Shown: piece after piece, positions 652-25,990 of the stretch
How positions within the stretch are numbered: the first letter of the stretch is position 1
Layout of the letters: the number at the start of each line of letters is the position of its first letter
Source of the DNA: Eledone cirrhosa
Lineage: Eukaryota
Direction of reading: 5' to 3'
Length of the DNA stretch: 64,000 nt
NCBI GenBank assembly: GCA_964016885.1
Contig: OZ024749.1
Location: 38,812,001-38,876,000 of the forward strand
The notes under the pieces: model-generated
Told to the model about the DNA's origin: nothing
The model's database searches: none
Seen by the model: the letters and a program-made list of their open reading frames with translations, nothing else
Program-made: the position numbers and the translations under genes

Positions 652-990
652 GGGGGCACATGGCTTAGTGGTTAGAGCATTGGTCTTGCAATCGAAAGGT
701 TGTGAGTTCAATTCTCAAACCGGGTGATGTGTTGTTTCCTTGAGCAAGACACTTTATTTCACATTGCTCCAGTTTACTCAGCTGTAGAAATGAGATGATA
801 GGGGCTGGTGTCCCTATCATTCCACTGCAAAGTGGTCGTGGAGGTGCCACGGCAAAAAAGCACCCAGCACTCACTGTAAATGAGGTTGGTGTTAGGAAGG
901 GCATCCAGCTGTAGAAATCAAGCCAGAATCAGTTCCCGTCCCACCCTTGCAAGCAGGGAAAAGCGGACGTAAAATGATGATGATGATATA
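652..990 (+). mobile_element. tRNA-derived SINE, family 2, full length with RTE-type tail
   Basis: TGGCTTAGTGG A box, GTTCAATTC B box, CCTTGAGCAAGACACTT core, tail CCCTTGCAAGCAGGGAAAAGCGGACGTAAAA(TGA)n; near-identical copies elsewhere in window. Confidence 0.88.
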
Positions 991-2533: not shown

Positions 2534-2586
2534 TATTAATATATAAGGGAACAAAGAATCAGTGTTGCATCATTTAGATATTTAAT

Positions 2587-2680
2587 TACATATTACATAT
2601 GTTTCACTGTCGATCAGCTCGAAGAACAATCAATTAATGATCGATCCTGACTCTGAAATAGGAAGCTCCTCAGATATGTA
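2587..2680 (-). ncRNA. type I hammerhead ribozyme motif with long branched stem II, in a TA-flanked element (about 2545-2747)
   Basis: minus: UACAUAU-CUGAGGA-GCU...AGU-GAAA-CAUAUG-UA/AUAUGUA; 7-bp stem I, palindromic stem III, GUA site. Confidence 0.75.
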
Positions 2681-3443
2681 TTCACATGTAGACTCGCGCC
2701 TAAGAGTGGTTGGATAGTTAGTTATACCAATTGCACCTCTAATACCTATATATATATATATATAGTACTCACTGTAAATGAGGTTGGTGTTAGGAAGGGC
2801 ATCCAGCTGTAGAAATCAAACCAAAATCAGTTCCTGTATGAGCAAGACATGGTCACCTGACCTGGCATTGCTCACAACAGGGCAACCCATCTAACCCATT
2901 CTAGCGTGGAAGAATGGATGTAAAACGGTGATGATGATGATGATATATCATCATCATCATCATTTTACGTCCGCTTTTCCCTGCTTGTTATCTAACCTGA
3001 TTGTTTTTTCGTTGCTTTGGTATTATGTAGCTAGGCTCGCCTGCTGCAGTTTTCAGTTTGTCACGCTATCTAATGTATGTTATTACTCTAAGGTGACACA
3101 GCCTTATTGAGTGCTTTGCTGCACATTCTTAATTGTATATCGTTAGCTTAGCCACAGCCAAAACTTCGATTTTACTAAACTTCCATTTGTATATATATAT
3201 ATATATATATACTTGTATATAAGGAAAAGAGTACCTTTTATTTTTATTATATTCAACATTGACTGGATAACTGAATTAATTTTTCATTTTCAGCTATGTC
3301 CAAACACTGTTTCAACAGGAAATGCTTTCTGGGTCTTGTCATTATAAGCTGTAAATATTGATTTATATGATTTATATGATAACAAGATCTGGAAATTGAT
3401 TTACCTTGTCATAAAACTAGGCTGAAAAACTTTCTTTCGTGAA

Positions 3444-3474
<31 letters not shown>

Positions 3475-3515
3475 CGAAACATAAGTCAATTGCATGAACT
3501 CATAATCCTTTATTT

Positions 3516-3571
3516 ACTGCTATATATATTTCGATGATAGCCATTGAATGGCTATGACCTCATCAGGCAGT
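3516..3571 (-). ncRNA. type I minimal hammerhead ribozyme motif in a TA-flanked element (about 3471-3635)
   Basis: minus: ACUGC-CUGAUGA-GGUcAUAGCCAUucaAUGGCUAUcAUC-GAAA-UAUAUA-UA/GCAGU, then AAUAAA. Confidence 0.82.
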
Positions 3572-3634
3572 TAGTCAGTTCTTAGATATGCCAGCTCTGT
3601 GTGTATAGTGTTGATGATATCAGAGCCTTGGGAC

Positions 3635-3679
<45 letters not shown>

Positions 3680-19040: not shown

Positions 19041-19131
19041 TCCAGCAGTTGCAAGAGCAGGAGGGATCATCCTGATGAGAACTAGTTCAGTTCGAAATGC
19101 ATCGGCGATTGTCCCCCTTGCTACTGTTGGA
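19041..19131 (+). ncRNA. type I minimal hammerhead ribozyme motif on an extended stem I
   Basis: CTGATGA 19072-19078, GAACT/AGTTC stem II, GAAA 19094-19097, palindromic ATGCAT stem III, AUC site (C19103); TCCAGCAGTTGCAAG pairs with CTTGCTACTGTTGGA. Confidence 0.75.
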
Positions 19132-24460: not shown

Positions 24461-24942
24461 TGAATTGGTTCTTCCCTTTTTCTCACACACACACACACTT
24501 TCTTTCTGTAGGAAATTAACTGAGGTCAGCTGTGGAGAGAGATTTGCTCTGCCAGACTTCAATAGCTGAGACAAGTGACAGAAATTATCATCATCATCAT
24601 TTAATGTCTGTTTTCCCTGTTAGCAATGGTTTGACATATGATGACATAAATTGAAAATAACTTACAAGCTTGTTTTTGACTCAAAAAGGGCTTTGTTTGG
24701 AATAGGAAGTTGAAAATATTGAACAGGATAAATAGCTCCTGTTTTATTGTAGTAGCTCCTGTGGATTTGACCAGACTGCAAACAGAAAATAGTGCAACTT
24801 AACTATAATGATATATATATAGAGAGTAATAATATATGTGAAGACTAAAATCCAAAGAGGGTATGATAAGGATTTTATATATATATAGTGAAAAATTGAA
24901 CGGGAACAAAACAGAGAAGCAGTACGAACAAAGGTTTATTAA

Positions 24943-25012
24943 TTTCACGCTCTTGAGAGTGGGGTGCTGGTGGGGAGCGACGTTTCGGGCATAAGCCCTT
25001 CTTCAGGTGAAA
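24943..25012 (-). ncRNA. Penelope-type minimal hammerhead motif in a TA-flanked element (about 24888-25152)
   Basis: minus: UUUCAC-CUGAAGA-A-GGGC uuau GCCC-GAAACGUC; stem I partner GUGAAA is displaced by a GCUC...GAGC hairpin; AAUAAA follows. Confidence 0.65.
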
Positions 25013-25238
25013 AGTGTGTGGGAAGAGAGTTCAAAGGGTGTGTAGGGGAGTGGTGGAGAGACATATAGCAAAAAGGGGGTGAGAGGAAACGGTGCAAATG
25101 AAATTAAAAATAAAGGCATGATCAAAATAAAATTAAAATGGGGTAAAACAGGTATATATATATAATTGGTGTTGGATGCTTAAAGCGTCCATATGCGGTA
25201 GGCTGTATGAGCACTTGATGCTCTCAGAGCAGAGTATG

Positions 25239-25462
25239 ATATCACAGAAAAAAAGAAAATCAGTGTTGCGACGAATGGAATTTATTGGACATATTACAAT
25301 CGTTTCTTTGGCGACCAGCTCGAGGCACGATCGATTTGATGATCAGAGTCAAGTTCGATCATAAAATCGATCGTGCCTCGAGCTGGTCGCCAGAGAAATG
25401 ATTGTAATATGTCCAATAAATTCCATTCGTCGCGACACTGATTCTCTTTTTTTCTGTGATAT
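25239..25462. mobile_element. long palindrome, inverted derivative of the 2545-2747 hammerhead element
   Basis: about 105-bp arms, 12-nt spacer 25345-25356; spacer plus right arm align to the minus strand of 2555-2655. Confidence 0.8.
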
Positions 25463-25651
25463 ATATATATAAACCCGTAGAGCAAATATTTATTATAAGT
25501 ACAGATTAAAGTTTAAGCAAAGAATCGCTGCTGTCACCCTTTACAGGATCTTCTGAAACTGAGAAAAATCAATCTGTGGACGCAGAAGTAAATATTTCAA
25601 CAAATGTTACAACTGAAGGAAAACAACACACACACACACACACATATAGTA

Positions 25652-25990
25652 GGAGGCACATGGCTTAGTGGTTAGAGCATTGGCCTTGCAATCGAAAGGT
25701 TGTGAGTTCAATTCTCAGACCGGGTGATGTGTTGTTTCCTTGAGCAAGACACTTTATATCACATTGCTCCAGTTTACTCAGCTGTAGAAATGAGATGATA
25801 GGGGCTGGTGTCCATATCATTCCACTGCAAAGTGGTCGTGTAGGTGCCACGGCAAAAAAGCACCCACCACTCACTGTAAATGAGGTTGGTGTTAGGAGGG
25901 GCATCCAGCTGTAGAAATCAAGCCAGAATCAGTTCCCGTCCCACCCTTGCAAGCAGGGAGAAGTGGACGTAAAATGAAATGATGATGATA
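25652..25990 (+). mobile_element. SINE family 2, full length
   Basis: near-identical to 652-990. Confidence 0.9.

Follow-up and report, generated by a model that had tools for sequence, protein, structure and literature searches.

The long palindrome at 25239..25462 of the window, by which we mean the whole 64,000-nucleotide stretch of Eledone cirrhosa contig OZ024749.1 analysed here, is formed by two 5'-truncated copies of a short non-coding element that stand head to head within a (TA)n repeat and only one of which carries the element's 3' tail. This is the architecture of Penelope-like element (PLE) insertions, and we consider it probable that the reverse transcriptase and GIY-YIG endonuclease of a PLE, supplied in trans, laid down the unit, likely in one event. 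The first-pass annotation had read the same palindrome as the fold-back product of a hammerhead family whose parent element lay in the same window; its observation is confirmed here, and its interpretation is partly supported.

The palindrome itself consists of 106-nt arms at 25239-25344 and 25357-25462, an inverted repeat that is 95% complementary with 12 nt between. As RNA it folds at -180 kcal/mol as compared with -51.3 +/- 4.3 kcal/mol for shuffled sequences (z -29.7), and RNA of the insert, if transcribed, would form a 106-bp hairpin. The initially annotated coordinates cover this palindrome but miss the rest of the inserted unit, which is larger, spans 25164-25462 and runs from the reverse-complemented tail through the left arm into the right arm, with TA repeats on both sides. 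Mapped by blastn to the 248-nt sequence of the P subfamily (171-nt body plus tail), which serves as the reference (ref) throughout, the unit and its flanks divide as follows.

25153..25163, no strand: (TA)n microsatellite of the left flank, read from the sequence
25164..25238, minus strand: tail X, the element's 3' extension, ref 248 to 172, present on this arm only (blastn)
25239..25344, minus strand: left arm, element body from ref 171 to 66, 5'-truncated (inverted-repeat and reference mapping)
25345..25356, plus strand: 12-nt 'spacer', the right copy's extra 5' bases, about ref 53-65 (blastn)
25357..25462, plus strand: right arm, element body to the short-form 3' end ...CTGTGATAT, tail-less (inverted-repeat and reference mapping)
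25463..25471, no strand: (TA)n of the right flank, read from the sequence

In blastn the left copy aligns window 25344..25164 with ref 66-248 at 94% identity and the right copy aligns 25343-25462 with ref 52-171 at 96%, such that the two arms overlap at their junction by 2 nt (TC) and the 12-nt spacer is the right-hand copy's own sequence and not foreign DNA. The arms reach ref 66 and 52 only and the CTGAGGA motif lies at ref 34-40, so that it is absent from both; the palindrome keeps GAAA[C/T]. Short-read contigs of the same species are about 100 nt long and repeat-saturated and speak neither for nor against the assembly of the palindrome's centre; an assembly artefact is unlikely because the same structure recurs at dozens of loci and the assembly is chromosome-scale. 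One 218-nt contig from another organism's run covers 25368-25472, whereas the contigs of two further organisms leave the arms uncovered.

The relationship to the element at 2545-2747, on which the earlier reading was built, is genuine. In blastn, spacer and right arm together match the 2540-2752 minus strand at 75% identity over 104 nt (E 1.9e-11, ~180-kb database), and the proposed significance test bears the alignment out, with a Smith-Waterman score of 45 against 9.3 +/- 1.6 (maximum 19, z ~23) in 1000 dinucleotide-preserving shuffles. Both the palindrome arm and the 2545-2747 element run on to ...CACTGATTCT, and the loss of CTGAGGA is likewise as described, the motif being present in the latter and in neither arm. 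The relevant features of that element are given below.

2545..2747, minus strand: single, 5'-truncated copy of the A family with the short 3' form (mapping)
2667..2673, minus strand: CTGAGGA box, hammerhead-like (CUGANGA), intact in 15 of 20 A copies (sequence)
2601..2605, minus strand: GAAAC box, followed by an ACAUAU/AUAUGU hairpin and GUA (sequence, pair counts)

The claim that parent and product share one window nevertheless fails, since the 2545-2747 element belongs to another subfamily (75%) and single-arm copies at 95-98% identity to the window arm, with a defined 5' start, are found elsewhere in the genome. Positions 2545-2720 match the A family at 92% (A reference 282-478 corresponds to window 2720-2524, also at 92%) and 2721-2747 is a diverged 5' piece; the copy is tail-less, has no inverted partner and has (TA)n on either side. 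With 2237 first-look candidates the A family is much larger than P. The ~457-nt body always stops at the same 3' end, but copies begin anywhere between 281 nt upstream of the part shared with P and 14 nt inside it, a 5'-truncation series; given the combination of fixed 3' and varied 5' ends, A behaves as a retroposon type. The two families can be aligned only from just upstream of CTGAGGA through the 3' end. By sequence comparison, then, the 2545-2747 element is a cousin and not the parent of the palindrome, whose source is P, a 171-nt sister subfamily. An adjoining inverted part is seen in 5 of 20 A loci, and 6 of the best 40 scored A places have a second inverted match nearby. At L031 the neighbours lie tail to tail.

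The P body of 171 nt starts with (T)AGGAAAATCTGCTTCG... and ends in one of two ways: a short form, ...CTGTGATAT(AT)n, and a long form with 77 nt more, tail X, which closes on ...CCAACACCAATT ATAT(AT)n and is present in 10 of 15 P single-arm copies. The tail is 75-77 nt long across the subfamily and 75 nt in the window copy. Because it differs between A and P in step with the body, we take it to belong to the element itself, as opposed to sequence already standing at the target.

A palindrome search of the 3.0-Gb genome returned at least 25 more loci at which the whole palindrome is matched, with 78-94% identity (counted from the match table), together with many further places that match a single arm and the spacer only, at 95-97%. 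This first palindrome set was biased by its query, and a second sample was drawn with the 64-nt outer arm end only: 166 first-look candidates, of which the best 40 were scored and 30 loci fetched, the window's own included. The copies sampled are those that match best (the youngest), and every count is a minimum. In 20 of these 30 loci an inverted partner adjoins the 5' end, the other 10 being single. Fifteen of the 20 dimers retain 40 nt or more of body in each arm, while in the remaining five the inverted part is a fragment, comprising the tail plus 11-16 nt (L100, L110, L115), part of the tail (L116) or a 25-nt internal piece (L097). TA repeats stand on both flanks in 15/20 dimers.

Where the two copies meet varies from locus to locus. 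Arm 5' ends in the P sample spread from ref 1 to 200, and of the 20 junctions 13 are overlaps of 0-8 nt, the other 7 holding fillers 1-18 nt long, with (TA)n at none. The inversion point had been tied to stem II of the supposed ribozyme; across the dimers, however, 14 of 39 arm ends fall within ref 41-103, the interval between CTGAGGA and GAAAC that makes up 37% of the body, and with no enrichment between the boxes the breakpoints are unrelated to stem II at the level of the family. A constant breakpoint sum (~120) in the first set proved to be a selection effect of the 224-nt query: it is gone in the 64-nt arm-end sample, where the sums run from 5 to 214.

Such variability bears directly on the reading that an annotator would reach first, namely a genuine MITE, descended by deletion from a DNA transposon and moved by transposase. 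The 106-nt inverted arms, the TA flanks and the multiple copies are all as expected of one. A transposase substrate, however, would hardly show at least 10 different junctions in 17 copies and breakpoints from 1 to 200 in the sample, nor a tail on one side only. Single-arm elements, and a 457-nt family whose copies form a 5'-truncation series, are homologous to each of the arms, and a target-site duplication would be unreadable inside TA repeats; we hold this origin to be highly improbable. Even less credence is due to a DNA rearrangement of a single copy after its insertion, through template switching or palindrome formation at an inverted repeat such as CGATCG. Self-complementary CGATCG and CTCGAG do occur near several junctions, but the junctions are spread across the whole element, and the outer ends of the units are the element's own 3' ends abutting (TA)n, whereas an inverted duplication would have taken flanking DNA along.

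The tails provide a further constraint. Exactly one tail is found in 16 of the 20 dimers and complete tails on both arms in none; one dimer is tail-less (L111) and three are ambiguous in tail status (L094, L097, L121). The sole two-tailed case, L048, comes from the earlier, query-biased set. The sampled single copies comprise six tailed and four untailed ones, and if each arm chose its tail independently at 60%, our arithmetic gives about one third of dimers two-tailed and about half one-tailed. The excess of one-tailed units argues against two independent, opposite insertions of the same family into one (TA)n, as does the dimeric state of two thirds of the loci when there are only 166 first-look candidates in 3 Gb. 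TA-repeat targets do read alike on both strands, and tail-to-tail neighbours of the L031 kind occur; yet no junction contains a TA repeat (0/20), the arms meeting instead through overlaps or short element-derived fillers. At ref 74, a C/A site and the only non-CpG polymorphic marker, the arms moreover agree in 13 of 15 dimers as compared with an expected fraction of 0.53 (binomial P ~0.007, our arithmetic). Given the concordant marker and the missing TA repeat between arms, separate insertions are very improbable. Overall arm identity was uninformative as a test of common origin, since it is 0.93 whether arms are compared inside a locus or across loci, the star-like pattern of a burst. With arms of the same locus no more alike than others, this identity is no proof of a common template; only the single marker site provides that.

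A single event leaves the question of how the second arm was made. In pure fold-back, by self-priming or snap-back, the 3' end of the cDNA folds back on itself and is extended, so that the first arm serves as template for the second. Several dimers carry its signature: the fillers at the junctions of L093, L101 and L118 repeat the element's first 9-18 nt in reverse complement, and in L103 ref 34 to 1, inverted, adjoins ref 13 to 248, giving small perfect central palindromes from the first 9-34 nt of the element in 4/20 dimers. Near-complete palindromes also exist (L039, L120), the marker shared by both arms in 13/15 dimers fits copying from one template, and fold-back is the hypothesis favoured for PLEs in the available text of PMC3846280, on the grounds of palindromes at inverted junctions. 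A copy of a tail-primed cDNA, however, can at most equal its template in 5' reach, and a copy of a tail-less cDNA gains no tail. In 9 of the 16 one-tailed dimers it is the tail-less arm that reaches further 5', the window copy among them: here the tailed arm is the shorter one (ref 66 vs. 52), which means that neither arm is a plain copy of the other and that simple fold-back, as first proposed, does not explain this palindrome. L101 pairs a complete arm without a tail with an internally gapped arm that has one, and the two-tailed dimers expected from full copy-back are lacking in the sample (0/20), with L048 as the one instance in the earlier set. We regard pure fold-back as unlikely, although it may contribute to the second arm.

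The alternative that we prefer to simple fold-back, and the simplest scheme to fit the rule of one tail per dimer, is two-ended priming. PLE reverse transcriptase and GIY-YIG endonuclease would act in trans on the element RNA, and each DNA end of the cut TA repeat would start a cDNA of its own: the first, begun at the RNA 3' terminus, would become the tailed arm, and the second, begun at the internal AUAU that separates body from tail, the tail-less one. Microhomology would then join the two in a manner resembling twin priming. Three tailed arms end at ref 156-161, just beyond the internal AUAU, consistent with cDNA synthesis that stops shortly after the internal priming site. The fold-back signature in 4/20 dimers shows that two-ended priming does not account for everything. 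As a general account of PLE inverted repeats, in which both (TA)n ends prime, at the 3' terminus and at internal AUAU, and snap-back adds only the small central palindromes, we put it forward only tentatively, as less likely than not to hold.

The attribution of the 2545-2747 element to a hammerhead family could not be upheld. No hammerhead model reaches the Rfam gathering score anywhere in the window, and at E<=10 there is none in 2450-2800 or 25180-25520. The palindrome yields only sub-threshold miRNA-precursor look-alikes, the best being MIR6459 with 54 bits against a gathering score of 100, and such scores arise because any long hairpin gives them. The 2545-2747 element does contain the core boxes CUGANGA and GAAA and an NUH triplet after helix III, and CTGAGGA and GAAAC are common to A and P; in A, as counted from the alignment, they are intact in 15/20 and 17/20 copies, respectively, and decay like the rest of the element. 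When a best-case three-way junction is imposed on 33 sequences, 80.2% of cells are paired vs. 77.8% in shuffles. In helix II the 60-nt insert can pair at its base, with 10.1-11.1 a G-U pair in 16 and unpaired in 13 of the 33 sequences and the subsequent pairs kept in 29-32/33. Helix I does not form directly after the cleavage site: in the canonical register 2/6 pairs form (A2 alignment, by inspection) and the sole conserved partner lies 11 columns later, where the off-register helix has one subfamily-level compensatory pair (AU:19 / GC:14). RNAalifold, run on the 33-sequence alignment, predicts another, weak structure of -5.27 kcal/mol, with no hammerhead junction and CTGAGGA itself paired. 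On these models the 2545-2747 family is not shown to be a hammerhead; it may be a decayed or variant relic of one. A regular-expression search for CTGANGA...CGAAA matched the window at 19072-19097 (plus) and at 24983-25006 and 3529-3566 (both minus); the latter two gained no Rfam support in 24880-25120 and 3430-3670.

The genome does harbour, in a separate family, a bona fide hammerhead of type I that scores 35-38 bits with RF00163; 18 of 74 scored candidates match the model, each with at least 34.4 bits against a gathering score of 34. This family ends ...GGCTTCTTTGTTTTACTCTCTTAAT(AT)n, comes in short and long 3' forms, and forms head-to-head pairs at L052 and L058, with two opposed matches in L088. 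Its blastn similarity to A and P is confined to TA repeats, and only low-complexity open frames surround two of its loci.

Candidate donors of the enzymatic machinery are abundant. PF01541 (GIY-YIG) has 10,596 first-look candidates in the genome, and all 150 of the 150 that were scored pass the cut-off. One 938-aa ORF contains RVT_1 at 28 bits, just below its 29.6 cut-off, followed by GIY-YIG at 28.3 bits; another, of 1096 aa, has RVT_1 at 39.4 bits with a GIY-YIG match inside. Several PLE 3' UTRs read ...CTCCCTGTTTTCA(TA)n and continue into a conserved CCTAACTCGTG tail, and a further PLE copy ends ...CCTCACTTTCTAAT(AT)n. This 3'-end layout of a pyrimidine-rich end, (TA)n and a conserved tail is that of the A, P and hammerhead families. 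The PLE-type traits encountered here thus comprise a fixed 3' end with 5'-truncations, an abutting inverted copy, a one-sided tail, (TA)n targets and the presence in the genome of elements with reverse transcriptase and GIY-YIG domains.

A 3' end shared with a specific autonomous element is the usual proof of trans-mobilisation. Blastn against 15 PLE loci, out of more than 10,000 candidates and hence a weak negative, found no autonomous PLE with an A or P 3' end, the three family references giving only 28-66-nt matches that are low-complexity or hammerhead-family tail segments. Likewise, neither the window nor the flanking DNA of 106 loci of these families showed any similarity to three PLE ORFs in tblastn. 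With no autonomous PLE of shared sequence among those loci, the link to PLE enzymes draws on architecture and co-occurrence, from which we infer that they mobilise the element. The agreement in layout and insertion features leads us to interpret the palindrome as the insertion of a short, non-autonomous element in PLE fashion.

A perfect 224-nt hairpin with TA flanks would be called a MITE by repeat annotators. The first-pass suggestion that MITE-looking palindromes in this genome can derive from retroelements is supported by a head-to-head pair of 5'-truncated copies related to the 2545-2747 element, and a DNA-transposon label would be wrong for such palindromes here, as they are footprints of retroelement integration. 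The main value of the family is as countable evidence on how PLEs integrate: because the element is short, whole units, with arms, junction and tail, can be read in hundreds of copies, and P yields countable predictions on which arm is tailed, where arms stop and what fills the junction. If two-ended priming is true, short non-autonomous families would be a natural read-out of PLE integration and a steady source of long hairpins, potential precursors of small RNAs, as opposed to transposase-made MITEs.

Compared with known systems, the palindromes share with MITEs of the Stowaway/Tc1-mariner-like type, which target TA, their size, long inverted arms, TA-rich sites and hairpin-forming transcripts, but differ in their variable junctions, one-sided tail and origin from 5'-truncating single-arm copies. 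In L1 twin priming, the source of 5' inversions in LINE-1 insertions, reverse transcription starts from the two ends of the cleaved target, once at the 3' end of the RNA and once internally, and microhomology joins the cDNAs; part of a single copy is thereby inverted, with no duplication. The scheme proposed here would resemble it in priming and joining, but the same segment stands in both arms, so that the body would need to be copied twice. Non-LTR retrozymes, hammerhead-bearing non-autonomous derivatives of PLEs as described in the available part of a preprint (10.64898/2026.07.22.740005), are likewise short, non-coding repeats presumed to depend on PLEs, and the genome's bona fide hammerhead family also ends in (TA)n and forms head-to-head pairs; unlike them, the palindrome family has no Rfam-detectable hammerhead and occurs as single or inverted copies, not as tandem arrays.

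The closest counterpart is found in PLE insertions themselves. The accessible sections of PMC8557442 (Craig et al. 2021) describe a high rate of 5'-truncation, inverted 5'-truncated copies at the 5' end, a tail of 30-40 bp that often stands at one end only, (TA)n as a preferred target of Naiads and hammerhead motifs in the pseudo-LTRs of canonical PLEs; the same sections place PLEs with an endonuclease in animals, a conifer case being the one exception, and an in vitro retrotransposition system, yet to be set up, is named as the next task for explaining inverted structures and microsatellite bias. The corresponding portions of PMC3846280 (Arkhipova et al. 2013) report inverted pLTRs, one of which optionally carries a 31-bp tail, AT-rich simple-sequence targets, head-to-head as the commonest arrangement and palindromes at the inverted junction that are interpreted as self-priming, there a hypothesis only for PLE inverted repeats. 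Relative to what these sources cover, P differs in that a 171-nt element without ORFs gives a MITE-like hairpin of 224-300 nt, whereas PLE repeats enclose an element of 3-4 kb, in the length of its tail (75-77 nt vs. 30-40 bp) and in that no partial tandem copies (direct pseudo-LTR, head-to-tail) are found among the 30 sampled P loci. It shares with them 5'-truncation, the abutting inverted copy, the extension at one end, the (TA)n or AT-rich targets, junction microhomology and the small palindromes at some inverted junctions, and by this analogy the palindrome is best seen as a clean, small-scale instance of the already published PLE inverted-insertion architecture and not as a new kind of structure.

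The genome searched (G000) holds a dispersed family that carries a genuine type I hammerhead, matching RF00163 at 35-38 bits (loci L052-L061 and L088), with the core CCTGATGAGTCC...GGACGAAAC. The family terminates in ...CTCTTAAT(AT)n and occurs in short and long 3' forms. Members stand as head-to-head pairs at L052, L058 and L088, and the "family A" of the first-pass annotation may be this RF00163-matching family. An example copy and the hammerhead-like strings of the window are as follows:

L053:1501-1545, copy of the hammerhead family, on the basis of RF00163
Window 19072-19097, plus strand, CTGANGA...CGAAA string
Window 24983-25006, minus strand, CTGANGA...CGAAA string
Window 3529-3566, minus strand, CTGANGA...CGAAA string

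In all three strings the boxes may enclose a stem II. For those at 24983-25006 and 3529-3566, Rfam searches of 24880-25120 and 3430-3670 returned no hammerhead at E<=1.

L028 (C2:355348065-355351249) and L033 (C2:355540404-355543588) can be aligned across their full 3 kb and are a segmental duplication, its halves ~190 kb apart, that includes a copy of family A in our own usage, the relatives of the 2545-2747 element. At L011 and L015 (C3:308992557-309001641) lie palindromic copies of P, the palindrome's source subfamily, with 6 kb between them; they share the rare arm variant CACCAC, have spacers in opposite orientations and probably represent a local inverted duplication.

Immediately right of the palindrome, window 25489-25800 is a very high-copy repeat, also found at an identity of at least 90% in contigs of organisms B, C and D; the palindrome arms are covered in D only and not in B or C, by one 218-nt contig over 25368-25472. 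Elsewhere, a tRNA-like match at 661-718 (plus strand; RF00005, 30.8 bits, barely above the gathering score of 29) may mark the head of a tRNA-derived SINE and not a tRNA gene. A very common tRNA-related, SINE-like repeat adjoins many fetched loci:

Flanks of L026, L029, L035, L040, L044, L056 and L064, SINE-like repeat with ...GAGTTCAAATCCCGCCGAGGT...GGGGTCGATAAAATAAAGTACCAG...

Penelope-like elements are extremely abundant in the same genome (10,596 first-look GIY-YIG candidates), with ORFs of up to 1096 aa that encode an RT followed by a C-terminal GIY-YIG (loci L062-L073 and L089-L091); at these loci, several of their 3' UTRs are closed by (TA)n and a conserved CCTAACTCGTG tail.
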